A stretch of DNA of 32,000 nucleotides from Coleofasciculaceae cyanobacterium. GTDB lineage: Bacteria; Cyanobacteriota; Cyanobacteriia; Cyanobacteriales; Coleofasciculaceae. Location of the stretch: NCBI GenBank assembly GCA_049671305.1, contig JBATUR010000045.1, positions 27,526-59,525 on the forward strand, in the 5' to 3' direction. This document shows, in pieces, positions 6,337 through 27,376 of this stretch. The stretch's first letter is position 1. The number at the start of each line of letters is the position of its first letter. The translations under genes were made by a program, and so were the position numbers. The notes under the pieces are model-generated. The model was not told the DNA's origin, ran no database searches, and saw only the letters and a list, made by a program, of their open reading frames with translations.

Positions 6337-7569
6337 TCAGCCGATACTGTCGGCAATGTGCGTGGCTTTAGTAGACAGCAGATTCTGCAAAAAACTATAA
6401 CCAGCTTGCTCTAAGTCTCCCGATAAAGAAAAAATCAGGCTGCGAATTCGGATGCTGCCAATTCTTATGTCTAAAGGCTCAGATAAAGGCGTTGGGTACA
6501 AAAGAATTGCCTCCTGACACCCTTTAGCTTCGGCATAGGCGACAACTTGAGCAAGATCACTTGATGCAGGTGTAGTTGAGGTTTTGTACTTCGTATCCAA
6601 TACATACCTCGCTGCACCTGTCGCTATATCTAATAGCACCAAGTCGATCTCAAAGTAGAGAGTTTTGCTTTGACCGATATAGATTCTTTCTTGAGACTTG
6701 AGATCTAACCCAAATGATAGTAGGATTTCGCGGTGTGCCACAAGCCATTCTGCCACAAAACGCTCGTATAGTCGCGCCATATCCACCAGGAATGGTAACA
6801 TTGTGCGATCGCCTATTTCGTGACTGGCTCCACTCTGCTCTAAAAAAAATCGACAAAGCGCGTGTAGAGGTCGATAATCTTCGTTGAGGCGGTTATATTG
6901 TCGCCCTACACAGGATTGAGGACTGTAAGGCTGTAGTGTCACTAATCCCTGTAGCAGGTGGAAAGCACGGCGTACTGTCGGCATGACTCGTTCTGTACAG
7001 CCGTTATGGGCAATGCACCAGAGAGTCCAGGCGAGGATCTGATTTTCTTCTACGTCGGCAGTATGTTCCTCATAATGACACTGGACTTTCAGATCCCAAG
7101 GTTTAGCGATCGCCTGTTCTATGTCAATCCGCCCTCGGATATATGGCAAGCGCTCAGTTTTTGGTAAGTAAGCACAATACAATCCCTGGCAACTTCGGTC
7201 GAAAATTCGGCGGGTTAAAATTTCAGCCAATCTTTCATAAAAATCCTCAAAAGTTTGGCAATCAACTAGTCCCTCCAAAAACCGAAAACTCTTAAGCTCG
7301 TATGCATACTCCAGCATCCCTAAAAGATTATCTATCTGTACTTTAGGACGTAATATAACCTGAAAATCAGCAGTTAAGGGAATCTGTCCTACCCATCCTT
7401 GTGCCGTCAGTCGCCATTGCTGATTCGTCTTGGGAGAGGGGAAATCTACAGCTACTTGAGGGCTATAACTACGCCATAAAGCCTTACCCAAAGTTTCGGG
7501 GATGACTTGCTGCGCTAATAGCACTGGACGATATTCTGTTAGCTCTATTCTCCGTGGGGAATTACTCAT
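6337..7569 (-). CDS. mcrC: McrC-like nuclease subunit of an McrBC-type restriction system
   Basis: Its size and its position immediately downstream of the McrB-like GTPase fit McrC. A C-terminal PD-(D/E)xK-like signature is present (FEIDLVLLD...YVLDTKYK). The track starts at a TTG (7575), but I prefer the ATG at 7569-7567, which forms an ATGA overlap with the mcrB stop at 7568-7566. Confidence 0.85.
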   Translation of the reverse strand: MSNSPRRIELTEYRPVLLAQQVIPETLGKALWRSYSPQVAVDFPSPKTNQQWRLTAQGWVGQIPLTADFQVILRPKVQIDNLLGMLEYAYELKSFRFLEGLVDCQTFEDFYERLAEILTRRIFDRSCQGLYCAYLPKTERLPYIRGRIDIEQAIAKPWDLKVQCHYEEHTADVEENQILAWTLWCIAHNGCTERVMPTVRRAFHLLQGLVTLQPYSPQSCVGRQYNRLNEDYRPLHALCRFFLEQSGASHEIGDRTMLPFLVDMARLYERFVAEWLVAHREILLSFGLDLKSQERIYIGQSKTLYFEIDLVLLDIATGAARYVLDTKYKTSTTPASSDLAQVVAYAEAKGCQEAILLYPTPLSEPLDIRIGSIRIRSLIFSLSGDLEQAGYSFLQNLLSTKATHIADSIG

Positions 7570-9134
7570 GAGCAAACCTGTGGCTTTACTTTGTCCCAGC
7601 GAAATTGGTTAACTTTACTCGGTTGGTTAAAGAAATACTCTTCTAAATAAGGTTCTATTTCTAGTCTCCAAATACTTTCTATCTGTTCCTTTAGCTGAGG
7701 TCTTAAAAAAAAACTGATTCCTACTTCATAATGAGGATTGCCGATTTCTTGGTTTAGTTGCTCTAAGATCTGAATCAGCTTATCCACGGGAAAGCCAGTT
7801 GAACTATGATAGTGACGTAGAATTTTGTAGTTGGGGTAAATAGGGATGAAGGCAAAGCGGCGGCGTAGGGCATGATCTACTAAAGCAATTGAGCGATCGG
7901 CAGTGTTCATTGTGCCGATAATCCGCACATTAGCTGGAATACCAAAGACTTTGCCCGCAGCGAGGGGAATTTTGGCGTCGCGGTACTCTAATAGGTACAT
8001 TAATTCCCCAAAGACACGGGCGATGTTGGCGCGGTTGATTTCATCAATTATTAGTATGCAGATATGCTGACGAGTGCCTGCTTGTCGGCAAAATTCGACA
8101 AACCGCCCATCAACTAGGGAATAGTTTAGTTCTCCATTGATTAGTTGTGGACGGATGCCTTGCACGAAGTCCTCATAAGCATATACAGGATGAAACTGCA
8201 CAAGTTCCCAAAAACCGTCACCACCGCCTATTAAATGCTGGGCGAGCTTTTTGGCGATGTAGGTTTTACCAGTACCGGGTGGTCCGTAGAAGATGGCTTG
8301 CTTGGTGCGTGCGATCGCCTGAAGCCAAAATTCCCAGGTTTCTACCTCAATCCCTGTCTCATTTGCCGATTGGGCTAAGGTATATTCTGGTTGCAGTTCA
8401 ATCTCTTTTTGATCATCGGCAGCAATAACTATCGCTTTCGGCTGAAGTTCTTGTGTAGCCAAGTTGTACTTTTTCACAACAACCAACCAGTGACAAAACA
8501 TATCGAATAAATCATTGTCTCTGAGAGCTGGTACGCCCGGTTTGTGTAAGTCTTGAGCTAATTTTTTTAAGAGTTTATGTCCGGTAATATTGATTGTTGG
8601 ATAGTTGGTTAACTTCTCACTATAAGACGTATTGGCAAAGTAGTTGATCGCCTGTGTAGATTTGTTATTAATTAACAGAAACTGATCGGGACGCAAGGCA
8701 TTAAGGATGGGCGTGAGCATTCCCATCTGAAATACTTTGCAGTATGGCAATTCTAAAAATTCAGAGCAAGCGGCGACTAACTGTTGAGGATCGTCATTAC
8801 ATTGACAAACGAAATGGAAAACTGCCTTGGCAATAAGTAAACAATCTTCTGGTTTCGTCCAAACTTTCTGTTCAAACTTAGTGCAGCCAGAATGGTGTAT
8901 CCAAGCTCCATTATGTCGATTGTTTGCAGAATCTGGATGAGGTAATAATTGTAATAAAACTGCCTCTGTTATATCTTCTTTCGCCTCGGTAGTTCTCTTA
9001 ATTGCTTCAAAGTTACGATGTGCTTGCTGACGTTGCTCATCATAAGCTGCTGTATGACGTAATCCAGCAGAGGTATATAGATATGAGTTGACAAATTCTT
9101 GAAATAGCCTCACAAATTCTGCTCTTTTTTTCAC
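7566..9134 (-). CDS. mcrB: McrB-like AAA+ GTPase subunit with an uncharacterised N-terminal region of about 260 aa
   Basis: GTG start preceded by GAGGT. Walker A FYGPPGTGKTY, Walker B plus the McrB signature IIDEINRANIARVFGELMYLLEYR, and the MNTADRS motif are all present. I could not recognise any known DNA-reader fold in residues 1-260. Confidence 0.9.
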   Translation of the reverse strand: MKKRAEFVRLFQEFVNSYLYTSAGLRHTAAYDEQRQQAHRNFEAIKRTTEAKEDITEAVLLQLLPHPDSANNRHNGAWIHHSGCTKFEQKVWTKPEDCLLIAKAVFHFVCQCNDDPQQLVAACSEFLELPYCKVFQMGMLTPILNALRPDQFLLINNKSTQAINYFANTSYSEKLTNYPTINITGHKLLKKLAQDLHKPGVPALRDNDLFDMFCHWLVVVKKYNLATQELQPKAIVIAADDQKEIELQPEYTLAQSANETGIEVETWEFWLQAIARTKQAIFYGPPGTGKTYIAKKLAQHLIGGGDGFWELVQFHPVYAYEDFVQGIRPQLINGELNYSLVDGRFVEFCRQAGTRQHICILIIDEINRANIARVFGELMYLLEYRDAKIPLAAGKVFGIPANVRIIGTMNTADRSIALVDHALRRRFAFIPIYPNYKILRHYHSSTGFPVDKLIQILEQLNQEIGNPHYEVGISFFLRPQLKEQIESIWRLEIEPYLEEYFFNQPSKVNQFRWDKVKPQVCS

Positions 9135-9161
9135 AGAAAGCTTACCTCAGCCCAGAATGTT

Positions 9162-9647
9162 TTAATGTTCCAGTAAAGCTAATTGATATCTTGTTTCTTC
9201 AGTCAAGTTTGATATTCTACATTTTGCTAATGATTCAAGAACACAAACTTCTTGAGGTTTTAAGTAATGATAGCTTTGGGGTGGTCTAAATTCAGACCAT
9301 TGTTCTTTAATGGTTTCTAAATCAATTGGTTTATTAAAAGGAAAACTCTTCTTTAATAAAATTCCATAACCGAGTGTTGCACCTTCGTAATAACTATCGA
9401 AAGTTTTACGATTTATACCTGCTTTATTTTCAACTTTATGCCAAAGTTTACTAGGATTTTCTTCAATAATTCTTTCAACTTCAAACCAACCAAACAAAGC
9501 TTTCTCAGGGCATGAAGCATACACTATAACTATATCATCCTCTCTCAAACGGGGGCGAACTCGCCGAAGTTCAACTGTCTTTGAACCATCAAAAATCTTG
9601 TTGGCGTACTCAGGTTTAATCGATATTAAAAGAATATTGCTTGGCAT
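9162..9647 (-). CDS. Stand-alone ASCH (PUA-like fold) domain protein
   Basis: 161 aa. The N-terminal pattern ISIKPEYANKIFDGSKTVELRR...IVIVYAS.PEKALFGWFEV..I....PSKLW is the classical ASCH/COG4933-type signature. The stop lies 27 nt upstream of the mcrB start. Confidence 0.75.
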   Translation of the reverse strand: MPSNILLISIKPEYANKIFDGSKTVELRRVRPRLREDDIVIVYASCPEKALFGWFEVERIIEENPSKLWHKVENKAGINRKTFDSYYEGATLGYGILLKKSFPFNKPIDLETIKEQWSEFRPPQSYHYLKPQEVCVLESLAKCRISNLTEETRYQLALLEH

Positions 9648-9663
9648 AAGTGTAATGCCTACT

Positions 9664-11802
9664 TTAAGTTTGAACTCCTAAAGCATAAACTTTAGAAAAG
9701 TTTTCTTTAGAGATGTACAAAGTTGTTGGTATTGTCGTTTTATTTTCCAAGATTTCTTGAATTTGAGGTAATGTTACAGGTTTTTTAAACAGCTCAGTAT
9801 CACTAAACTTAATCGCCATAATAACATTATTTGGGTCTTGATCAGCGGCATCAAATATATTTTTTCGTTCAAATATACCTAAATCTCGAAAGCGTCGATA
9901 CAGCTCTTCTGGTTTGCCAATAACAACCTCGTCAAGTCTGGAGCAAGCTCGAATAGCACTAATTCCCCTGTATCCATAACCCTTTTTTTCGTTATCTTGA
10001 CTCACGTACCAGAGAATTCTACCGCATCTACCTGATTTTAATTGTTTTAAACTCTTTTTCGATGTGTAATATACAGCTTCCCTGTTGAGGGCAAGACCTA
10101 TTTTTGTTGCACCGAATAGAGTTTGATTTGCTAATTCTTCATCAAATAATTGTTGTGCCCAGAAGGGTTTAATAGGAATGATGAAAGTTGGTATATCTGC
10201 ATCAATAATCTTTGCCGGGTAGAGAAAACGCTCAATATCAAACATCGTTTGTGTATCTTTAATTGCATCATTTGTATTTAGGTTATTAGCCAGGTGATGA
10301 CAAAAAGTATATTCTTGCCCAAATTTAATCGCTAAATCTTCAAGATGCTGTGAAAGGTTTAGCGCCGTTTCAGCAACTCCTATATTTGCTCTCAACCAAC
10401 CATTTTTAACCTTGATAAAATTATCTTTTTGCATAACTTTAAGAACTTTTTCTTGTATTTTATTATCAGTAATTCTTGTGAATTGTCTATGTTCACGAGC
10501 CGAAGTTAATGCTGCTTGAAAAATTAGATGATGTGTAATAGTTACCGCTAAATGATTATCTCCAACCCTCAACATCGGTATCTCTAGCTCATGTTTTTTG
10601 TGCCTATCATATACCACTAAGACTAGTGGTTGGTTTTCACCCTCTACAATTACAGAACATTCAAATTTATCTGGTTCAGCAAGAAAACGGTGTATTTGCT
10701 GCTGAAAATCAGCTCTATTTTCTCCTTGATTAAAAGACTGAAAGTAGCTGTCTGGGATGGCTTTTTGCCCTATCTGAAGACGTTTTTGCTCTAACTGAGT
10801 ACCCGCTAAACGTACAGGTTGATATTCAGGTTTTTGAAGAAGCTCATCTAATCGAGTAATTAGCTCAACCGGATGAAGAATTGATAATTTGAAGTACTCA
10901 TAAATATCTTCAGCAATATCTAATAAAATACTATTAAAAGTCGTATATATATAAATATTAGCTGCTAAGGTTCTAGCTAGATTGCGGATTTCATATTCGT
11001 CAATTAACGTATTTTTTTCTTGTAGAAATTTCCTTAAATGTTGTTCATTCGTATCTAACTGCTGATGACAAGACAATACAGTAAAATTGTCGGCAAATAG
11101 ACGCATTTCTTTTCTTGCTTTTTCAGTATTTATCTTATCAATTTTATTGAATATTTCACCAGTTATGCACAGTTCTAAATAGGGCTGTAACCAGTCAGCA
11201 ATTAGTAAATGTGCTTCTTCAACTTCCAGTTTACTGTTTATATTTGAGTATAAATGAAAGAAGATTTCCGTATCTACAACTACAAATAGTTTAGATTCAC
11301 GTTGTTGATTGGTAAGAGTAGATAATAAATTAGGATGACCGTAATCGAGCCACCAATAAGTAAGTCTTTTTCCTGGTGTTTTTGCTGGTTTGTCATCTTT
11401 AGCAACAAAACCTAAGCTAGACCAAAAATGCTCTAATTTATAATCTCGACGACAGTTTAGACCAATGCCATTATACTCTTGGGTTATTTCCTTGAGGTGA
11501 TTAAATAAGAGCTTTGCTACTCCTTTTTTGCGCTCTGAAGGATCAACACATAAATGAATAATAGCGATGCGGTTATACTCAGATGAGGGTCTATACAGTA
11601 AATAGCCAACACATTTTGATTGAGGTTCAATAGCTACAATTATTTGGCGAAGTACGGCGTGTCTAAGAAAAGCACCTTCTGGAAAAAAGCCAAGAGTTTT
11701 TTTGTGAGCATCACCTAACTTTATAACTGTTTGTAGGTGAGGAGATTTGTCATCAATTATTTCAATCTTCAACTGTGTCTCTTTAGTCATTTTTTTTTTC
11801 AT
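9664..11802 (-). CDS. Multidomain protein: N-terminal GNAT acetyltransferase, PIN-like segment, unknown central region, C-terminal ASCH/PUA-like domain
   Basis: 712 aa. A GNAT acetyl-CoA motif is present (IHLCVDPSERKKGVAKLLFNHL, then LGF). Residues about 170-320 start like a PIN domain (LFVVVDTEIFFHL). Residues about 535-700 repeat the ASCH-type pattern (FIIPIKPFWAQQLFDE...GRILWYVS...ISAIRA...PEELYRRF). The stop lies 16 nt upstream of the ASCH gene start. Confidence 0.6.
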   Translation of the reverse strand: MKKKMTKETQLKIEIIDDKSPHLQTVIKLGDAHKKTLGFFPEGAFLRHAVLRQIIVAIEPQSKCVGYLLYRPSSEYNRIAIIHLCVDPSERKKGVAKLLFNHLKEITQEYNGIGLNCRRDYKLEHFWSSLGFVAKDDKPAKTPGKRLTYWWLDYGHPNLLSTLTNQQRESKLFVVVDTEIFFHLYSNINSKLEVEEAHLLIADWLQPYLELCITGEIFNKIDKINTEKARKEMRLFADNFTVLSCHQQLDTNEQHLRKFLQEKNTLIDEYEIRNLARTLAANIYIYTTFNSILLDIAEDIYEYFKLSILHPVELITRLDELLQKPEYQPVRLAGTQLEQKRLQIGQKAIPDSYFQSFNQGENRADFQQQIHRFLAEPDKFECSVIVEGENQPLVLVVYDRHKKHELEIPMLRVGDNHLAVTITHHLIFQAALTSAREHRQFTRITDNKIQEKVLKVMQKDNFIKVKNGWLRANIGVAETALNLSQHLEDLAIKFGQEYTFCHHLANNLNTNDAIKDTQTMFDIERFLYPAKIIDADIPTFIIPIKPFWAQQLFDEELANQTLFGATKIGLALNREAVYYTSKKSLKQLKSGRCGRILWYVSQDNEKKGYGYRGISAIRACSRLDEVVIGKPEELYRRFRDLGIFERKNIFDAADQDPNNVIMAIKFSDTELFKKPVTLPQIQEILENKTTIPTTLYISKENFSKVYALGVQT

Positions 11803-11875
11803 AGATTAGATAGCTGGTTCGTTGGTTTTGAATAACGACTTGTCTCTGGTTTAAGTTAAACCACTCAATTGATAC

Positions 11876-12049
11876 TTACCATATATCAACCAGCGTCATC
11901 CTAATATCATGTTCCACTTCTTCAGTACTTTGAATCTGTAAGAGCATTGCTGTCACTTTTCGTCCATTTTTAAAAATCATATTTGATTCATTCTTGCTAA
12001 CTAGCATTTGCAGTAAATCGCCCCCATTACTTATAATTTTCTCTTTCAA
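11876..12049 (-). CDS. Possible mini-ORF. It is 57 aa from the TTG at 12049, or 43 aa from the ATG at 12007. Product unknown.
   Basis: Hand translation: (M)KEKIISNGGDLLQMLVSKNESNMIFKNGRKVTAMLLQIQSTEEVEHDIRMTLVDIW*. It is below the 60-aa track cut-off. It fills most of the otherwise empty gap between two co-directional genes. No clear SD was seen. Confidence 0.25.
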   Translation of the reverse strand: MKEKIISNGGDLLQMLVSKNESNMIFKNGRKVTAMLLQIQSTEEVEHDIRMTLVDIW

Positions 12050-12062
12050 ATAATGCCATTTT

Positions 12063-12578
12063 TTAATCCCACCAGTAGCAAATTACAACGGCATCACAAT
12101 TACGTTGCATATTATCAGCAAGCCCTTCTAACAATCTAGGTCTTAAACCACGCTTAAGCCGCCAAGTATAACTATAATCCTCATTCGTGCTATCACTCAC
12201 ATCTACTGAATCAGCACGCCATTTTTTGCCCAAGTCCATAAGTTGAAAAACCGTTGTATCTTTGTTTTCAGCAAGGATGTATAACGTATCCGCAGGATAG
12301 GGAATGAACCGAATCATACTAGTTTCAGGCATAGGACGATAGTTTGCCATCGCTAGAAGCGTATCGATTACACCGCTAAAACTTAAACCATTTTCATCGG
12401 GTGCAAATATCGGTTTTGTGAATAGAAAGCTAGCCCATAAAGCAGAATGATTAGCAAGATCAGTAATCACTTCTTCGCCATCAAACTCATTAAATTGACG
12501 CTGCCAAACTAGTGCCGCAAAAAGTTCTTGAGGAGAATAAGATTGAGCAATTGATTGAATTTTAGCTAAGTCAAGCAT
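12063..12578 (-). CDS. Hypothetical protein, 171 aa, no recognisable family. First gene of the minus-strand cassette.
   Basis: ATG start preceded by GAGGA. It is co-directional with the 712-aa gene. No motifs I can assign. Confidence 0.6.
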   Translation of the reverse strand: MLDLAKIQSIAQSYSPQELFAALVWQRQFNEFDGEEVITDLANHSALWASFLFTKPIFAPDENGLSFSGVIDTLLAMANYRPMPETSMIRFIPYPADTLYILAENKDTTVFQLMDLGKKWRADSVDVSDSTNEDYSYTWRLKRGLRPRLLEGLADNMQRNCDAVVICYWWD

Positions 12579-12799: not shown

Positions 12800-15640
12800 A
12801 TGATTAACATTAGCGAGTTTCAATCATACCTGCAAGAAATCTGCCGCTACTACGAGCAGTGGTGGACTGAGGTTGCTTTAACTGACACGATCGCAAATCA
12901 ACTTGCTCGCTTCTCATTTGAGCAGATGGTGCAAACTGAGGAGAAGGAGAAGACAGAGGAAAAACCGCAGAAAATCTCGCTGCCAATTTTTCAAGGAATA
13001 CAGACTTACCTTCAATCAGAGCATATCTTATTAGTTGGTTCGCCCGGTGTCGGCAAATCAACGGCTCTTTTACGTTGTTTAATTAGCTTTGCTTCATTGG
13101 AACTTGAGAAACCAGAACCTCGAATTCCCGTGCTGATAAAGTTGAAAATGTATGAGGTTCCTCCACCTAACTCTGAAGATCCTTCGGGGATGTTGGCACT
13201 AATTAGAGCTGCTCTTAAGCCACAACTACGACGACTAAAACTGAAAATTCCAGAAATTCCAAAAGTTGAAGAGCTATTGTTTCAGAAACGACTGATTCTG
13301 CTCTTAGACGGCTTGAACGAGATGCCAGCAGACACACGTCGTACAAAATTGCAAGTATTTCGTGACGAGTGCAAAGATTCCGAAATACCTCTTATCTGCA
13401 CAACAAGAGAAGGTGGCGGTACTCTAGGCATCAACAGGCAATTAGAAATTCAACCGCCTAGCTCTTTAGAGATTGATCGCTTTTTACGAGAATGTATGCC
13501 CGCTCAAGGGCAACAAGTGTTGCAATTGTTGAACCGAGATAACCGAGAGTTGAGCCGCACGCCATTTGTTTTATGGATGCTGTATCAATTGTTTCAGGAG
13601 AAAGGCGTTGTTGTAGAGACTTTGGGAGAGGCATTCCGGCAATTTTTTCAGTCTTTCCAAAAATACAAAGAAGATGCACCTGTTAGCGATGAGCGCCGCG
13701 AAGATTGGAATCTTTGGCTGGAATGTTTGGCATTTACAATGCTAAACTCTCCACCAAATGAGTCTAGTTTGGTAATCTCTAAGGAACGAGCAGAAAAAGT
13801 TCTTGCTGAAAGTGAAAGGTTTGGTCATCTTTATGGTGCTTCATCCCGGATTGAAGAGTTACTTAAGTATCACCTTTTGGAGAGAGTTTCTGATAAGGAA
13901 GTTAGTTTTCATCATCAATTGATTCAGGAATATTATGCGGCAGAATGTCTACTTCCTCAGCTATCTGAACTGATTAAAGAGCAATCAGGTCAGAAATATA
14001 CTCGATTTCAGATAGATTATCTCAACTATTTGAAATGGACAGAAGCGATCGCGATTATGCTTGGGCTACCGGAGATTACTGAAAACCAGGCAGAACGATT
14101 AATAAAGTTGGCGTTGGATGTGGATTTGCAGTTGGGAGCAAGGTTGGCGGGGGAAGTCAAACCAGATTTTCAACAGAAAACAGTTAGCATGATTGCTAAA
14201 CAGCAAGTCTGTAAGAAACTTAGAAGTAGGCTGCTAGGTAAAACACGCTCTGAGGCTGCTGTTCCACTGTTAATCGAATTACTTCAGGATGAAAGTTCCT
14301 CTGTACGTTCCGATGTAGTTTATGCATTAGGACAAATTGGTGGTGAAGCAGCAATTTCAGTATTAATCGAGGCATTGAACGATGATAACTATTCTGTGCG
14401 TTCCGGCGTAATTGATGCATTAGATCAGATTGGTGGAGAATTAGTACGTCCTGGTCTTATTAAAGCTTTAGAAGATGAAGATAAGTACTTAAGCAGAAAA
14501 GCACTTTTATTATTAGCAGAAATAGACTTAGGAGACAACTTTGAAATACTAAGTAATGCAATTTTAGACCCTGATACTAGTTTGGTTGCAGCTATTGCGA
14601 TAACTAGAATTGATTCAAAAAAATCTGCTCCAGTCCTGCTCAAAGCAATTAAAAGTTCAAACTTTCGTGTGCAATTTAGTGCAGCGTTTGCACTGGGAAC
14701 GATGGGATTTGAAATTGCAGTACCAGTTTTACAACAAGCAATTGAAATTATAGATTTATCAGATATTCATAGGATGGTAATTCACCTATTAGCAAGAATT
14801 GACTCAGAACAAGCTGTCTCAGCCATGAAAAAACTGATTCAAGATCCAAATCCTGATAAAAGTAATCTAGTAATCAATACTTTACTGTCAATGGACATCG
14901 AAGAGATTGCCCCAGCTCTGCGTAGAGTCATTCAAGACCCAATAAGTGAATATAAAACGAGCTTTGATCGAAAACTCAACATAGTCAATACAGAAGAAAT
15001 ATCTGACTGCCTTCTTCAAGCTACACAGAATATACGTCCTGATGTAGTAAAAAGTGCAGCTTTTCTTTTGAGAAAATATGGAAATCCTGAAATGCTTTCT
15101 ACCCTTTGGCAGCAGCAAATCAGGCTTTTTCAAGAGGATATTGTTGAAACCATCGCTTCCATCCAATCACGCTGCCAATTCTACAATTACGAAATCGCAC
15201 AATCTTCCCGACCCGCAGCGCCAAAGGCAGAATATTCAAACTCACCACAAGGATTTACTATCATGACTGACAAACAACCAATCATCAACTTTAATCAATC
15301 AAATGCGACTGTAGGTGTCAATTATGCCGCTGAAAATAGCAACATCAAATTTCAGCAAAACGTCAAAAACATCTCCGAACAAGACCTTGCCGAAGCTGCA
15401 AAAAAAATTCAATCTCTCTTAAGTCAACTCGCTCAAACCTATTCCCATACCACCGAGTCCCAACAACAGACCTTCATTCAAAAATTTATAGCACAGCTTG
15501 AATCTACTCCTGACCTCATAAAAGTTATCCTCGCAGGTGGTATCGAATGGCTAAAAATTCTCTGTCCTCCTACTGGAATTCCTATTGAAATGTCACGTAG
15601 CCTCTACGAAGCTGTGCAAAAACGTGACAGTCAAGCGTAA
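12800..15640 (+). CDS. NACHT-family STAND NTPase with C-terminal HEAT (PBS-lyase-type) repeats and an extra tail of about 125 aa
   Basis: 946 aa. Walker A LLVGSPGVGKST starts near nt 13037, and Walker B is LILLLDGLNEM. Repeated HEAT units are present (SSVRSDVVYALGQIGGEAAISVLIEALNDDNYSVRSGVIDALDQIGGE...). A short helical N-terminus of about 75 aa precedes the P-loop. Confidence 0.85.
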   Translation: MINISEFQSYLQEICRYYEQWWTEVALTDTIANQLARFSFEQMVQTEEKEKTEEKPQKISLPIFQGIQTYLQSEHILLVGSPGVGKSTALLRCLISFASLELEKPEPRIPVLIKLKMYEVPPPNSEDPSGMLALIRAALKPQLRRLKLKIPEIPKVEELLFQKRLILLLDGLNEMPADTRRTKLQVFRDECKDSEIPLICTTREGGGTLGINRQLEIQPPSSLEIDRFLRECMPAQGQQVLQLLNRDNRELSRTPFVLWMLYQLFQEKGVVVETLGEAFRQFFQSFQKYKEDAPVSDERREDWNLWLECLAFTMLNSPPNESSLVISKERAEKVLAESERFGHLYGASSRIEELLKYHLLERVSDKEVSFHHQLIQEYYAAECLLPQLSELIKEQSGQKYTRFQIDYLNYLKWTEAIAIMLGLPEITENQAERLIKLALDVDLQLGARLAGEVKPDFQQKTVSMIAKQQVCKKLRSRLLGKTRSEAAVPLLIELLQDESSSVRSDVVYALGQIGGEAAISVLIEALNDDNYSVRSGVIDALDQIGGELVRPGLIKALEDEDKYLSRKALLLLAEIDLGDNFEILSNAILDPDTSLVAAIAITRIDSKKSAPVLLKAIKSSNFRVQFSAAFALGTMGFEIAVPVLQQAIEIIDLSDIHRMVIHLLARIDSEQAVSAMKKLIQDPNPDKSNLVINTLLSMDIEEIAPALRRVIQDPISEYKTSFDRKLNIVNTEEISDCLLQATQNIRPDVVKSAAFLLRKYGNPEMLSTLWQQQIRLFQEDIVETIASIQSRCQFYNYEIAQSSRPAAPKAEYSNSPQGFTIMTDKQPIINFNQSNATVGVNYAAENSNIKFQQNVKNISEQDLAEAAKKIQSLLSQLAQTYSHTTESQQQTFIQKFIAQLESTPDLIKVILAGGIEWLKILCPPTGIPIEMSRSLYEAVQKRDSQA

Positions 15641-18906: not shown

Positions 18907-20673
18907 TTGCAGCAAACACAGACAGTTGCAATTTCTGCCATTGCTGGCATGGGTGGCGTCGGTAAAACCGAACTGGCGCTGCAATACGCCTTGCAATCAT
19001 CACGTGATAAACAATACCCAGGCGGTATTTGCTGGCTAAATGCCCGAAGTTTGAATGTGGGAATTCAAATTGTCAATTTTGCCAGAAAATATTTAAAGTT
19101 GCAGCCTCCCGAAGGTTGGGAATTACTAGATCAGGTAAAGCATTGCTGGCACAATTGGCTGCCGGGAGATGTGCTGATAGTGCTGGATGATCTGACCAAA
19201 TATGAGGATGTGAAGCCTTATTTACCACCAATAGATCTCCGTTTTAAGGTATTGATGACGACGCGGCTACAGTTGGGTGCACCAATTAAACGCTTAGATT
19301 TGGAGGTGCTGACTCCAGAAGCGGCACTGGCTATGTTGAGGTCGTATATTGGGAAAAAACGGGTAGATAGCCAGTTAGATGTTGCTAAAAAACTCTGCAA
19401 ATGGTTGGGTTATTTGCCCTTGGGTTTGGAGTTGGTGGGGCGATATTTGGCTGATGAAGAGGATTTATCCATAGTAGAAATTCAACAACTTTTGGCGCTG
19501 AAATGTGAAGCCTTGGATGAGACTCATCCTGAAATGACAGCAAAGCTAGGTGTTGTGGCTGCCTTTGAGTTGAGTTGGCAGGAATTGGACGAAAATGCCC
19601 AAGTTTTAGGTTATCTGCTTTCTTTGTTTGCCTCTGCGCCCATTCCCTGGTCGTTGGTGGAAAGTGCCACAGACTTTTGGCAAGAATACCAAACCCACCA
19701 GGGAATAAATTCCCTGGCTGATAGCGAAAGTCCGTTAAAACGGACTGAAGACACTGATGCTAGTCGGTTTAAACCGACTTCCGCTATTAGCCCGGAACTT
19801 AAGTTCCGGGCGGGGAAAGCGACTATCCCCGATTTAAAGAAAGCCCGACGCGCTTTGCTAAAGTTCAACCTAATTAAGCGCACCAAGAAAGACACCTACG
19901 AGTTACACCAACTAATTCGAGAATTCTTTTTGGATAAACGGGAAGAGTCCGCCGAGGCAGAGGAACTGAAACTGGCATTTTGTCGGGCAATGGTAGCTGA
20001 GGCAAAGACAATTCCTGCGACACCGACGCTTAAAGATATTGCAGCAGTGAGATTGGCTATTCCTCACATTGGCGAAGCTGCCACTACTCAGAAAGCTTGG
20101 TTGGATGATGAGGATTTAATCAGACCCTTTGTTGGTTTGGGGCGATTCTACGAAGGACAAGGAGACTACAAGCAAGCCGAACCCTGGCGTGAGCAATGCT
20201 TGTCATTAACTAAAGCACGCTTGGGAGAAAACCATCCTGACGTGGCAACCAGTATCAACAATTTGGCAGAACTCTACTATTATCAAGGACGCTACACAGA
20301 AGCAGAACCTTTGTATCTGCAAGCTTTGGAGTGGAGGCAACGGAATCTGGGAGAAAACCATTCTGATGTAGCAGAAAGTCTCAACAATTTGGCAGCACTC
20401 TACTATTCTCAAAGACGCTACACGGAAGCAGAACCATTGTTTCTGCAAGCATTAGAGTTGAGGCAACGTCTGCTGGGAGAAAACCATCCCGATGTAGCAC
20501 TCAGTCTCAACAATTTGGCATATCTCTACTCTTCTCAAGGACGCTACAGTGAAGCTGAACCATTGTTAGAGCAAGCTTTAGAGTTGAGTGAGCGAGTGTT
20601 GGGGCTTAATCATCCTAATACTGTTAGCTACCGTAAGAATCTGCAAAGACTGCGTGCTCAGCAGGTTGATTGA
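18907..20673 (+). CDS. NB-ARC (AP-ATPase-type) STAND NTPase with C-terminal TPR repeats. The 5' boundary is unreliable because homology-like sequence continues upstream to 18793.
   Basis: P-loop AIAGMGGVGKTELALQYA and Walker B VLIVLDDL are present. There are four or more kinesin-light-chain-type TPRs (NNLAELYYYQGRYTEAEPLYLQALE...). The track start is a TTG. The canonical pre-P-loop motif NLPPSGISQFVGREDVL is encoded upstream of it at 18838-18888 in the same frame. Confidence 0.85.
   Translation: MQQTQTVAISAIAGMGGVGKTELALQYALQSSRDKQYPGGICWLNARSLNVGIQIVNFARKYLKLQPPEGWELLDQVKHCWHNWLPGDVLIVLDDLTKYEDVKPYLPPIDLRFKVLMTTRLQLGAPIKRLDLEVLTPEAALAMLRSYIGKKRVDSQLDVAKKLCKWLGYLPLGLELVGRYLADEEDLSIVEIQQLLALKCEALDETHPEMTAKLGVVAAFELSWQELDENAQVLGYLLSLFASAPIPWSLVESATDFWQEYQTHQGINSLADSESPLKRTEDTDASRFKPTSAISPELKFRAGKATIPDLKKARRALLKFNLIKRTKKDTYELHQLIREFFLDKREESAEAEELKLAFCRAMVAEAKTIPATPTLKDIAAVRLAIPHIGEAATTQKAWLDDEDLIRPFVGLGRFYEGQGDYKQAEPWREQCLSLTKARLGENHPDVATSINNLAELYYYQGRYTEAEPLYLQALEWRQRNLGENHSDVAESLNNLAALYYSQRRYTEAEPLFLQALELRQRLLGENHPDVALSLNNLAYLYSSQGRYSEAEPLLEQALELSERVLGLNHPNTVSYRKNLQRLRAQQVD
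19698..19832. repeat. Nested-hairpin small dispersed repeat inserted in frame inside the NB-ARC-TPR coding sequence
   Basis: Five consecutive perfect hairpins were read: CCAGGGAATAAATTCCCTGG, AGTCCGTTAAAACGGACT, AGTCGGTTTAAACCGACT, CCGGAACTTAAGTTCCGG and CGGGGA..TCCCCG. The connector CCGCTATTAGC is the reverse complement of the core of the connector GTCTAATAGCTAAAG in the 17.6-kb repeat. The segment encodes the low-complexity stretch QGINSLADSESPLKRTEDTDASRFKPTSAISPELKFRAGKATIP. Confidence 0.75.
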
Positions 20674-27302: not shown

Positions 27303-27376
27303 CGGGGCGTAGCGCAGCTTGGTAGCGCACCACTTTGGGGTAGTGGGGGTCGTGGGTTCAAATCCCGCCGCTCCGA
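27303..27376 (+). tRNA. tRNA-Pro, anticodon GGG
   Basis: Hand-folded cloverleaf. Acceptor CGGGGCG/CGCTCCG (one G-U pair). D arm GCGC-AGCTTGGTA-GCGC. Anticodon arm CCACT-TTGGGGT-AGTGG (anticodon GGG with G37). T arm GTGGG-TTCAAAT-CCCGC. Discriminator A. CCA is not encoded. The track ORF 27195-27380 is spurious. Confidence 0.9.

Follow-up and report, generated by a model that had tools for sequence, protein, structure and literature searches.

The 32,000-nt window analyzed here (the whole stretch of cyanobacterial DNA under study) carries on its minus strand a four-gene operon in which a 712-aa GNAT-PIN-unknown-ASCH-like protein is followed, in this order, by a 161-aa ASCH protein, McrB, and McrC. 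We give an even chance to the reading that this is a composite defence operon, i.e., a divergent GevTA / PDC-M11-type module functionally integrated with McrBC Type IV restriction. The upstream pair and McrBC are each of known kinds, and it is their fixed fusion that represents a new variant.

Re-reading the window recovered all six minus-strand ORFs proposed by the initial annotation, with identical coordinates and spacings, including intergenic gaps of 73 nt (11803–11875), 16 nt (9648–9663), and 27 nt (9135–9161). However, the six-gene cassette that had been drawn from these ORFs reduces to four genes, as a 57-aa mini-ORF is non-coding and a 171-aa gene lies outside the conserved core. The mini-ORF was rejected as a gene: an independent gene caller did not call it on the identical public contig, and its frame is broken in a 98.5%-identical strain and a 95%-identical relative (L088, L090). 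The 171-aa protein, previously described as an orphan, is by homology a member of a real small family (95 representative homologues, 14 of them below 1e-30). Its gene adjoins the cassette only in near-identical strains, and is absent from 80/80 related genome loci as well as from beside an 83%-identical cassette. Once the mini-ORF is discounted, a non-coding stretch of 260 nt (11803–12062, minus strand) remains 5′ of the 712-aa gene and leaves room for a promoter, so that the tight packing originally claimed holds for the spacings but not for the upstream junction of this gene. Judged by position only, this region probably serves the four-gene operon as promoter and 5′ leader; a consensus promoter scan showed no enrichment and placed no site within 11803–12062.

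McrB (522 aa; 7566–9134, minus strand) consists of an all-alpha N-terminal domain (aa 1–~225, nt 8460–9134), a linker of ~30 aa, and an AAA+ GTPase core (aa 250–513, nt 7596–8387). This core matched AAA_5, NCBIfam McrB (1.7e-45 over aa 250–510), and E. coli McrB 6hz4 (2.6e-45, with an alignment limited to aa 250–513), and includes the motifs GPPGTGKT, DEINRAN, MNTADRS, and RRRF, which are invariant or nearly so across 51 cassettes; the core is thus as canonical as first reported. McrC (6337–7569, minus strand) matched PF10117 (8e-37) and NCBIfam McrC (2e-27), and its PD-(D/E)xK-type motif (D311 ... LDTKYK) is intact and invariant in 51 cassettes. The McrB stop and McrC ATG do overlap as ATGA at 7566–7569, which sets the McrC start at 7569 (410 aa) rather than at the TTG at 7575; an independent gene caller likewise obtained 410 aa.

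For the 712-aa protein (9664–11802, minus strand), Pfam, Foldseek, and an AF2 model (pLDDT 79.7) bore out the GNAT, PIN-like, and C-terminal ASCH-like modules that had been proposed. The N-terminal GNAT acetyltransferase domain (aa ~1–155, nt 11338–11802; Pfam GNAT match at aa 54–141) has protein N-terminal acetyltransferases (Ard1/Naa10/Naa50) as its nearest structures in Foldseek. It is followed by a PIN domain whose active site is eroded (D177, E216, N290; aa ~170–325, nt 10828–11295); PIN_3 matches 15/22 members of this protein family, and the same search gave no match for the window copy. Next come an alpha/beta domain (aa 333–480, nt 10363–10806), for which Pfam, PDB, and the GNAT profile yielded no match and hence no family assignment, and a helical linker leading to a C-terminal ASCH/PUA-like beta-barrel (aa 527–712, nt 9667–10224). 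This barrel resembles ZmASCH (Foldseek, 5guq, E 8e-8, TM 0.74–0.80) as well as the profile of the stand-alone ASCH protein (hhalign 88%, E 2.8e-6).

The stand-alone ASCH gene (161 aa; 9162–9647, minus strand) is located between the 712-aa gene and McrB, as annotated, and its product matches Pfam ASCH PF04266 (3e-6). Its family profile aligned with ZmASCH 5gus/5guq over the full length (4e-26), with Y43, K49, and S125 at the positions of ZmASCH Y47/K53/S128; across the family, Y43 and the PPQ of a PPQS motif are invariant, while S125 and K49 are highly conserved. A YqfB acyl-cytidine amidohydrolase type was rejected, since the profile search gave a strong hit to ZmASCH but apparently none to any YqfB entry. 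ZmASCH, the closest characterised ASCH protein, is a single-stranded nucleic-acid binder and weak ssRNA-specific RNase (Kim et al. 2017, PMC5615036), rather than a demonstrated reader of modified dsDNA.

The two upstream genes were initially viewed as part of an undescribed combination; the pair instead belongs to the (PIN)-GNAT-EVE + ASCH family, PADLOC candidate PDC-M11. On the window, PADLOC models PDC-M11B and PDC-M11A matched the 161-aa protein (9e-37) and the 712-aa protein (2.8e-8), respectively, the latter covering the C-terminal part only (aa 506–683). The same models correspond to GevA (PDC-M11B, 7e-52) and GevT (PDC-M11A, 2e-133), annotated as “GevT toxin/GevA antitoxin” in phage PhiR47_2 (GenBank PV340567.1, 2025 record), and the 161-aa ASCH family aligned with the phage GevA (hhalign 99.7%, E 1e-26). 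Judged by these profile matches, the pair is a divergent member of this family and a candidate phage-defence module, and the 712-aa protein is related to GevT / PDC-M11A distantly and with a rearranged architecture. Fusions of GNAT and PUA with a neighbouring ASCH protein were described computationally by Bell 2020 (PMC7641849), with credit to Iyer 2013, in the context of type I RM, CRISPR, AAA_17, and prophages. We found no report in the literature of a GevTA-like pair fused to McrBC, and a 2024 McrBC census (Bell et al., PMC11090510) mentions neither GNAT nor ASCH.

Across 80 related genome loci, the homologue of the 712-aa gene (GNAT712) is followed by the ASCH gene in 79; in 59, McrB and/or McrC lies downstream of the pair with order and orientation preserved, and all four genes were detected in 55. 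McrB and/or McrC was also found behind the pair in 21–23 metagenome contigs, and the cassette is present on two plasmids, one from Nostoc and one, mobilisable, from Calothrix. No further neighbour is common to more than 17/80 loci, and those that recur are housekeeping genes. The four-gene arrangement is far beyond chance, and the neighbourhood data strongly favour the conserved linkage and co-directional operon that the initial annotation had proposed. On the GNAT712 tree, McrBC linkage corresponds to one clade, which spans many cyanobacterial genera and several orders, with varied flanks. Elsewhere, the same ~700-aa protein and the ASCH protein end an operon after a type IIG RM-methylase, an SMC-like ATPase, and an HNH nuclease in Prevotella, or come after MmeI, a DEAD helicase, and T5orf172 (L074); by their gene order and homology, they form a module ending various restriction operons.

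The same loci also bear on a plausible although less probable explanation, i.e., that two autonomous systems are merely co-located and co-transferred: a toxin–antitoxin or abortive-infection pair of GevTA-like type, alongside an McrBC that is self-sufficient in recognising its targets via the N-domain. The pair would then at most stabilise the locus or provide an independent second line of defence. It does occur without McrBC in 21/80 loci, often with a convergent gene downstream (one of these, L022, lies on a contig that stops short of McrB). Lambdoid phages carry it as well, with the toxin–antitoxin annotation given above for PhiR47_2; the pair thus has its own function. McrBC with the same N-domain also exists without the pair, so that each half is autonomous elsewhere, and fusions of this N-domain to nucleases are as expected of a DNA-binding module. 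In addition, GC and GC3 are lower for the GNAT/ASCH genes than for the McrBC genes in 53/55 loci, suggesting different origins, and decayed cassette variants lose parts independently (e.g., L035). However, the linked loci keep a single order and orientation and short gaps (medians 9, 51, and −4 nt) despite several orders and varied flanks, and pairwise-distance correlations are as high between modules (GNAT712 vs McrB, 0.86) as within McrBC (McrB vs McrC, 0.89). Together with the McrB and PIN patterns described below, such signals would be unexpected for independent neighbours, though one founding event could mimic them.

McrB architecture was compared across 80 metagenome loci that encode its N-domain, scoring those with a scorable AAA+ core. 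All of the 21 scorable pair-linked McrBs have a 21–47-aa linker and none has a DUF8426, EVE, or DUF2461-like insert, as is also the case for the window McrB, whereas 34/36 pair-less McrBs carry 150–630 extra residues between N-domain and AAA+ core, consisting of DUF8426, DUF2461-like, or EVE; the exceptions, L107 and L166, are pair-less and also short-linkered. The EVE identity of some inserts was verified against 2ar1, 2eve, and 2gbs, and EVE in cis is confined to pair-less relatives (L128, L163, L164, L170, L175), while DUF8426, to whose fold no assignment could be made, is a candidate reader only. From this comparison, the pair-linked McrB has lost the middle modules of its pair-less relatives. 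That pair-linked McrBs are stripped of the cis modules carried by nearly all pair-less relatives suggests that the two halves cooperate, argues against two autonomous systems, and lends support to the earlier idea of a reader supplied in trans.

In its strict form, this idea held that McrB has no reader at all, that the ASCH proteins bring McrBC to modified phage DNA, and that GNAT and PIN are accessory. This we consider unlikely. The absence of a recognisable reader fold in the McrB N-terminus stands: the N-domain is a confidently modelled all-alpha fold (AF2 pLDDT 89.7, pTM 0.81) that resembles neither PUA-like nor other known reader folds and has no significant PDB match (best E 1.3). The restriction of cis EVE to pair-less relatives, the two ASCH-type modules encoded upstream, and the modified-DNA binding inferred for ASCH proteins of such operons, e.g., from an ASCH-HsdS fusion (Bell 2020, PMC7641849), are also consistent with the strict form. 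Yet the N-domain is strongly conserved, kept in every cassette, and elsewhere fused directly to NmeDI_C-type nuclease domains, which points to a probable nucleic-acid or targeting role; the N-domain may itself bind DNA and may be a self-sufficient DNA-recognition domain, so that McrB need not be reader-less. ZmASCH, moreover, favours single-stranded nucleic acids, and the GNAT acetyl-CoA motif is intact with invariant GNAT residues, which argues for a central and not an accessory role of acetylation.

An intact PIN D-E-D set is present in 17/21 stand-alone pairs vs 13/58 McrBC-linked pairs (the Fisher tests carry no phylogenetic correction). A catalytic-residue census indicated at least 11 independent changes; based on these alignments, loss of PIN catalytic residues is widespread within the clade linked to McrBC, and this persistent erosion, seen in that clade only, would not be expected of two autonomous systems. 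As the linkage, the loss of the McrB insert, and the relaxation of the PIN site all fall within what is essentially one clade, a single event in the past may account for all three.

The conserved GNAT could alternatively acetylate a DNA or RNA/tRNA base, with ASCH reading the mark and McrBC cutting DNA with (or without) it. McrBC enzymes are modification-dependent, the GNAT shares a polypeptide with a PUA-like reader, and the Calothrix plasmid has the cassette beside an m5C RM system, making it unlikely that this McrBC targets that m5C pattern. DNA-base acetylation was proposed for this protein family by Iyer 2013, as relayed in Bell 2020 (PMC7641849). We nevertheless regard such a system as very improbable, as the closest GNAT structures are protein N-terminal acetyltransferases, the profile search does not place the ASCH protein in the YqfB type, GNAT toxins of known target, as cited in Bell 2020, acetylate aminoacyl-tRNA, and a nucleic-acid substrate is here purely hypothetical.

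For the composite operon that we favour, we infer a coupling that goes beyond anatomy and co-occurrence. McrB hexamers and McrC would form a GTP-driven translocating nuclease acting as the DNA-cutting effector. The two ASCH-type barrels, one free and one tethered to the GNAT protein, would sense modified bases or single-stranded nucleic acid of the invader. They would take the place of the EVE/DUF8426-type modules that pair-less relatives carry in cis, and would license McrBC or guide it to its target, probably via the all-alpha N-domain. The GNAT, probably still active, could provide a second, toxin-like output by acetylating a cellular or invader target, with the ASCH partner restraining it as the GevT/GevA naming implies, and the PIN nuclease may no longer be needed now that McrC provides nuclease activity.

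Among known systems, GevTA / PDC-M11 shares with the window pair a GNAT and C-terminal PUA-like barrel in one protein, a PIN in many members, a clearly homologous small ZmASCH-type ASCH gene directly downstream on the same strand, and an association with restriction systems. The window protein differs in its ~700-aa GNAT-PIN-unknown-PUA architecture, as opposed to PIN-GNAT-EVE or GNAT-EVE, in its eroded PIN active site, and in its fixed operon with McrBC. ZmASCH (Zymomonas mobilis, PDB 5guq) is a full-length homologue of the 161-aa protein with conserved functional Tyr47/Lys53/Ser128 positions, but was studied in isolation, operon partners and a defence role being outside the scope of that paper (PMC5615036). 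E. coli McrBC (Type IV; PDB 6hz4, 6ut6) has the same AAA+ GTPase core, McrC PD-(D/E)xK motif, and overlapping mcrB-mcrC genes. Its DNA-binding domain, however, is unrelated to the ~225-aa all-alpha N-domain of the window, where the operon also has two extra conserved upstream genes. In other McrBs a PUA-like reader is present in cis, for instance as the YTH-like N-domain of Thermococcus gammatolerans McrB. These enzymes, among them EVE-McrB fusions (Bell 2020), likewise combine the McrB motor with PUA-superfamily modules, and relatives within the window McrB lineage hold EVE between N-domain and AAA+ core, whereas the PUA modules of the window are on separate, upstream-encoded polypeptides, one of them tethered to an acetyltransferase. 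Finally, CoCoNuT-type McrBC systems (Bell et al. 2024, PMC11090510) are similarly McrBC-derived, with conserved accessory genes and predicted extra nucleic-acid targets, but the accessory genes of the window cassette are GNAT and ASCH instead of coiled-coil nuclease tandem components.

The conserved core of the locus is a cassette of four minus-strand genes, which encode a 712-aa protein (9664..11802), a 161-aa ASCH protein (9162..9647), McrB (7566..9134), and McrC (6337..7569; 410 aa from an ATG at 7569, with an ATGA overlap at 7566-7569 between the McrB stop and the McrC start). All six ORFs listed in the initial annotation are present on the minus strand at 6337-12578 with exactly the spacings it described, and its domain calls were matched in family scans: McrC hit PF10117 (8e-37), McrB hit AAA_5 and the NCBIfam McrB model (1.7e-45) across residues 250-510, the 161-aa protein contained an ASCH domain, and Pfam placed a GNAT domain at residues 54-141 of the 712-aa protein. 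Its reading of these ORFs as a six-gene system does not hold, since the two most upstream ORFs, of 171 and 57 aa, have no counterpart in any of the 80 genome loci compared (0/80). Because its frame is broken in both a 98.5%-identical strain and a 95%-identical relative, the 57-aa mini-ORF is non-coding, so that an intergenic stretch of 260 nt (11803-12062) precedes the 712-aa gene; the gene caller of a 15.5-kb public metagenome-assembled contig identical to the window likewise called the 171-, 712-, 161-, 522-, and 410-aa genes and not the mini-ORF. The 171-aa protein (12063-12578, minus strand) had been described as an orphan and instead belongs to a small-protein family of 95 representative homologues (14 below 1e-30, typically 160–176 aa), with no match among the Pfam, PADLOC, or NCBIfam models. 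Its gene is found beside the cassette in near-identical strains alone, an 83%-identical cassette having none, hence our delimitation of the conserved unit to four genes. A consensus scan for internal promoters and terminators gave no more sites than shuffled sequence and was uninformative, and an Rfam scan of the window returned a single tRNA gene (27303-27376, plus strand), away from the cassette. Two STAND-type NTPases flank the region on the plus strand, at 12800-15640 and 18907-20673, and may be further defence or signalling genes. One is a 946-aa NACHT and HEAT-repeat protein with weak PADLOC HEAT-ARM and PDC-M14B matches, and the other a 588-aa NB-ARC and TPR protein; a homologue of the NACHT-HEAT protein (35% identity) lies ~7 kb upstream of the cassette in one other locus (L080) and is not found in the rest.

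Next, we evaluated the linkage of these genes across genomes. Full-length homologues of the 712-aa protein (~700 aa) number in the hundreds, chiefly in filamentous cyanobacteria, and 80 loci fetched from 249 relatives were searched with all window proteins. The linkage that the initial annotation proposed to check through homologue neighbourhoods proved strong: 79/80 loci had an ASCH gene after the 712-aa homologue in the same orientation, McrB and/or McrC came next in the same order in 59/80, and all four genes were detected in 55. Among the 50 loci where each of the four genes is close to full length, the median gaps were 9, 51, and -4 nt. Any other neighbour was common to at most 17 of the 80 loci, and the recurrent ones were housekeeping genes (Ile-tRNA synthetase, sugar kinases, an MFS transporter, phosphoribulokinase). 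For the 712-aa protein and McrB, pairwise-distance matrices correlated (r = 0.86) as strongly as they did within McrBC (McrB and McrC, r = 0.89), and neighbour joining of the 712-aa homologues grouped the McrBC-linked copies in one clade, the sole apparent exception being a contig that ends before McrB. Base composition suggests that the cassette joins two modules of different origin that were fused once, rather than assembled recently in this genome. Across the 55 cassette loci, mean GC was 0.35 for the GNAT gene and 0.34 for the ASCH gene vs 0.39 for McrB and 0.40 for McrC, all below the flanking 0.42, and mean GC3 was 0.25 for GNAT/ASCH vs 0.34 for McrB/McrC. Since this offset is systematic (53/55 loci), we ruled out recent separate acquisition as its source here.

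That the pair formed by the 712-aa and ASCH proteins also closes other restriction-type operons adds to the evidence for coupling: in Prevotella, a ~700-aa protein and an ASCH protein end an operon after a type IIG RM-methylase, an SMC-like ATPase, and an HNH nuclease, and in an Elusimicrobia genome (L074) they end one after MmeI, a DEAD helicase, and a T5orf172 protein. The two-module base composition would suit a reading in which two independent systems merely travel together, and the near-equal distance correlations and the domain losses described below are what such a reading has to accommodate; we consider it a possible explanation, though not a probable one, and under it the cassette would be no more than two defence genes sets stably paired, a finding of modest interest.

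The immediate surroundings of the cassette are varied. RM systems often sit directly beside it or one of its halves (L093, L082, L074, L081), and include an Eco29kI m5C RM pair, an Eco57I/BsuBI fusion, and MmeI-type enzymes. On the mobilisable Calothrix sp. PCC 6303 plasmid pCAL6303.01 (L093), the cassette lies directly downstream of the Eco29kI-type m5C RM pair; because an m5C methyltransferase thus adjoins the cassette, this arrangement suggests that the McrBC encoded there does not attack the adjacent m5C pattern. Some copies are disrupted or decayed. McrB is truncated by an IS21-like insertion on a Nostoc CENA543 plasmid (L095), a 712-aa homologue truncated at residue ~636 abuts McrC after deletion of ASCH and McrB (L035, 10001-13074), and elsewhere one fragment each of GNAT and ASCH persists together with McrB, while McrC is missing (L083/L084, 6077-8344). 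Kilobase-scale insertions also separate the genes of some cassettes, with gaps of up to 3.7 kb between McrB and McrC (L032, L036, L078, L001, L003) and 1.3–1.7 kb between ASCH and McrB (L043, L049).

The restriction half appears intact. The McrB core aligned with E. coli McrB (PDB 6hz4) at 2.6e-45 with all signature motifs, including MNTADRS, and the McrB motifs and the PD-(D/E)xK nuclease motif of McrC (D311...LDTKYK) were invariant or nearly so in 51 cassettes; judged from these alignments, both the AAA+ core and McrC appear fully functional. An all-alpha domain is confidently predicted for residues 1 to ~225 of McrB (pLDDT 89.7, pTM 0.81), for which a structure search of the model gave no significant PDB fold match (best E 1.3), consistent with the earlier remark that this region has no recognisable reader fold. 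An HhH-glycosylase-like fold was considered and rejected, as it had only weak Foldseek matches (E ≥1.3, probability ≤0.25). Relatives of the N-domain occur in other McrBs and in a pair-less split McrB beside an MmeI-type enzyme; others lie next to, or are fused with, an NmeDI_C domain that bears a PD-(D/E)xK-like signature. The combination of N-domain and NmeDI_C (IDVIW...FEVEH) without an AAA+ motor was seen at loci L085, L086, L154, L157-L159, L167, and L171-L174, and in protein P0267. Judged by this distribution, a single undescribed all-alpha domain is common to McrB motors and stand-alone NmeDI-type nucleases, and its behaviour is that expected of a modular targeting domain.

To compare McrBs with and without the pair, we ran the McrB N-domain against metagenome contigs and retained 80 loci of 154 relatives. 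The pair lay upstream in 23 of these, 21 of which included the AAA+ core, and in all 21 the linker between N-domain and AAA+ core measured 21–47 residues. By contrast, 34 of 36 pair-less McrBs carried 150–630 extra residues between the two domains, comprising DUF8426 (25/36), a DUF2461-like region, and/or an EVE domain, none of which was found as an insert in the pair-linked McrBs of the metagenome loci; the remaining two pair-less McrBs had short linkers too. The EVE insert was identified by a profile search whose top PDB matches were 2ar1 (1.6e-4), 2eve (1e-3), and 2gbs (1.2e-3), all deposited as ‘hypothetical proteins’ and all EVE-domain structures. The EVE domain is itself named after 2eve (PMC7641849). 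A PUA-like identity for DUF8426 found no support in a PDB profile search or in hhalign comparisons with ASCH and EVE profiles. The pair-less relatives (within L118-L175) are giant proteins of ~1130 aa (e.g., L143 6317-9715 and L137 6314-9700), laid out as an additional N-terminal domain of ~230 aa (‘Nx’), the N-domain, DUF8426 (WKIAPGE...GW..LGD), a DUF2461-like region, and AAA+. In the window McrB, the 30-aa linker leaves no room for an inserted reader, and tblastn over the 80 genome cassette loci and the 21–23 pair-linked metagenome loci gave no EVE or DUF8426 match, the sole DUF2461-like match being a weak one downstream of McrB in L036. These absences would fit a strict trans-reader arrangement with an McrB devoid of any reader; as the retained N-domain behaves like a targeting domain in other proteins, we think this unlikely.

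The upstream pair was resolved into domains by structure prediction and profile comparison. The AlphaFold model of the 712-aa protein (pLDDT 79.7) has five parts: the GNAT domain (residues ~1–155, also in Pfam), an alpha/beta PIN domain (~170–325, with PIN_3 matches in the family), an alpha/beta domain left unassigned (333–480), a helical linker, and a C-terminal barrel that matches ZmASCH in Foldseek (E 8e-8, TM 0.74–0.80). The 333–480 domain had no Pfam or PDB match; its secondary-structure order is compatible with GNAT, and a second, degenerate GNAT was nonetheless rejected, as hhalign against the N-terminal GNAT was not significant (0.25%). The C-terminal barrel and the stand-alone ASCH protein are distant paralogues (hhalign 88%, E 2.8e-6), and the family of the latter is in turn a full-length homologue of ZmASCH (profile search, 4e-26) with conserved residues at the positions of its functional Tyr47, Lys53, and Ser128. 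ZmASCH is a single-stranded nucleic-acid binder and a weak Mg-dependent ssRNA nuclease (PMC5615036). A YqfB-type N4-acylcytidine amidohydrolase, which would have made the two proteins an acetylation/deacetylation pair, was set aside as the identity of the ASCH protein, given the strong ZmASCH match and no YqfB entry noticed among the matches. In the GNAT domain, H83, C85, R118, D120, and W127 are invariant and the R/Q-x-x-G-x-A motif is largely kept.

To a ‘write and read’ scheme, in which nucleic acid would be acetylated and the mark then recognised, we would give only the slimmest of chances. Hardly less speculative is a ‘write-then-restrict’ or trans-reader Type IV system, in which the GNAT-ASCH protein and the ASCH protein would form a detachable McrBC specificity complex that takes over from the reader domains ordinary McrB proteins carry in cis. 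The complex would recognise invader nucleic acid and perhaps acetylate it, for example at amino-bearing hypermodified bases. Although very unlikely in our estimate, it would, if true, mean that restriction can respond to acetylation, a new kind of chemical input, and that ASCH proteins are exchangeable specificity subunits for McrBC, type I, and type IIG/HNH enzymes.

The PIN domain is where the pair itself differs with linkage. PF13470 (PIN_3) matched 15 of 22 family members (best 3.3e-9) and not the window copy, which has D177, E216, and N290, with T-F-N in place of T-x-D, and thus lacks the full catalytic acidic set. The D177/E216/D290 set was intact in 17/21 stand-alone pairs vs 13/58 McrBC-linked copies. 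Changes at the catalytic site arose at least 11 times independently, and non-canonical states lasting in large subclades were confined to the McrBC-linked clade. Contingency tests were significant (p ~1e-7 and 4e-6) but not phylogenetically independent, because essentially a single clade accounts for the linkage, the loss of the insert, and the relaxed PIN site. The reciprocal loss, of accessory or reader modules in McrB and of the PIN site in the pair, is a signature of the kind pointing to division of labour.

The anatomy, conservation, co-inheritance, and reciprocal losses are what this comparison establishes, and from them we infer an integrated four-gene model to which we assign roughly even chances. 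In this model, McrB and McrC would be the GTP-driven DNA-cleaving effector, and the free ASCH protein and the GNAT-tethered ASCH-like barrel would act as nucleic-acid sensors in place of cis EVE/DUF8426-type modules, licensing or directing McrBC, plausibly via its retained all-alpha N-domain. The GNAT domain may provide a second, toxin-like acetylation output, restrained by the ASCH partner as the toxin and antitoxin names of a homologous phage pair (GevT/GevA, see below) imply, and the PIN nuclease would now be dispensable. The value of the finding lies in the reciprocal domain losses, through which a candidate module becomes a testable accessory, or trans-acting sensor, of a classical restriction enzyme. 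The cyanobacterial lineage offers a natural experiment in which the pair is locked to a well-understood effector in at least several dozen genomes, and it leads to a testable hypothesis: ASCH-type proteins would serve restriction enzymes in trans, as sensors or specificity factors, and acetylation would be the second output.

Finally, we compared the cassette with known systems. The pair had been presented as an unnamed combination; in fact, the 161-aa protein matches the PADLOC model PDC-M11B (9e-37), and the 712-aa protein matches PDC-M11A over its C-terminal ~165 residues only (506–683, 2.8e-8). Bell et al. (2020) describe an operon of this kind, with a (PIN)-GNAT-EVE fusion protein and a neighbouring ASCH protein, often found with restriction systems or prophages, predicted to be toxin-antitoxin-like, and credited to Iyer et al. 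2013 (PMC7641849). A homologous pair is annotated as ‘GevT toxin’ and ‘GevA antitoxin’ in a 2025 lambdoid phage record (PV340567.1; Escherichia phage PhiR47_2, L092, 5404-6832). This GevT matches PDC-M11A at 2e-133 and GevA matches PDC-M11B at 7e-52; GevA aligns with the window ASCH family (hhalign 99.7%, E 1e-26), and GevT aligns only through the C-terminal barrel (169–352 vs 531–712). In lambdoid E. coli phages, the pair sits between cI and kil, and the ASCH homologue appears in eight E. coli phage records as well as in Streptococcus, Oenococcus, and Methanothermobacter phages. Given these matches and the published operon, the pair is a known but uncharacterised candidate module. GNAT-PUA and ASCH pairs of the PDC-M11/GevTA type are widespread, and in the literature we searched they figure only in comparative-genomic work, on a list of candidates, and in a single GenBank annotation, with no experimental study found for PDC-M11, GNAT-EVE, GevT/GevA, or ASCH proteins in anti-phage defence. 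The same search returned no report of McrBC linkage, of which an earlier mention in Iyer 2013 is possible; the EVE census gives other contexts for these modules (PMC7641849), and GNAT, ASCH, and cyanobacteria all go unmentioned in an McrBC census of 2024 (PMC11090510).

What appears new is the fusion of the pair with McrBC: both halves are of already known kinds, and the cassette is not a categorically new system. Its downstream half agrees with Type IV McrBC, with an McrB AAA+ GTPase bearing Walker A/B and signature motifs and McrC directly downstream, in every sequence feature compared, the one exception being the kind of DNA-binding domain expected at the N terminus, and it differs from PUA- or EVE-fused McrBs in that the McrB polypeptide has an all-alpha N-domain and no PUA-superfamily reader. 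Its upstream half shares with GevTA/PDC-M11 a small stand-alone ASCH protein of the GevA/PDC-M11B type and, directly upstream on the same strand, a partner with GNAT and a C-terminal PUA-like domain. However, the cyanobacterial partner has no end-to-end colinear PIN-GNAT-EVE or GNAT-EVE match, and with its GNAT-PIN-X-PUA order and ~700 aa it represents a version distinct from GevT in both domain order and size.
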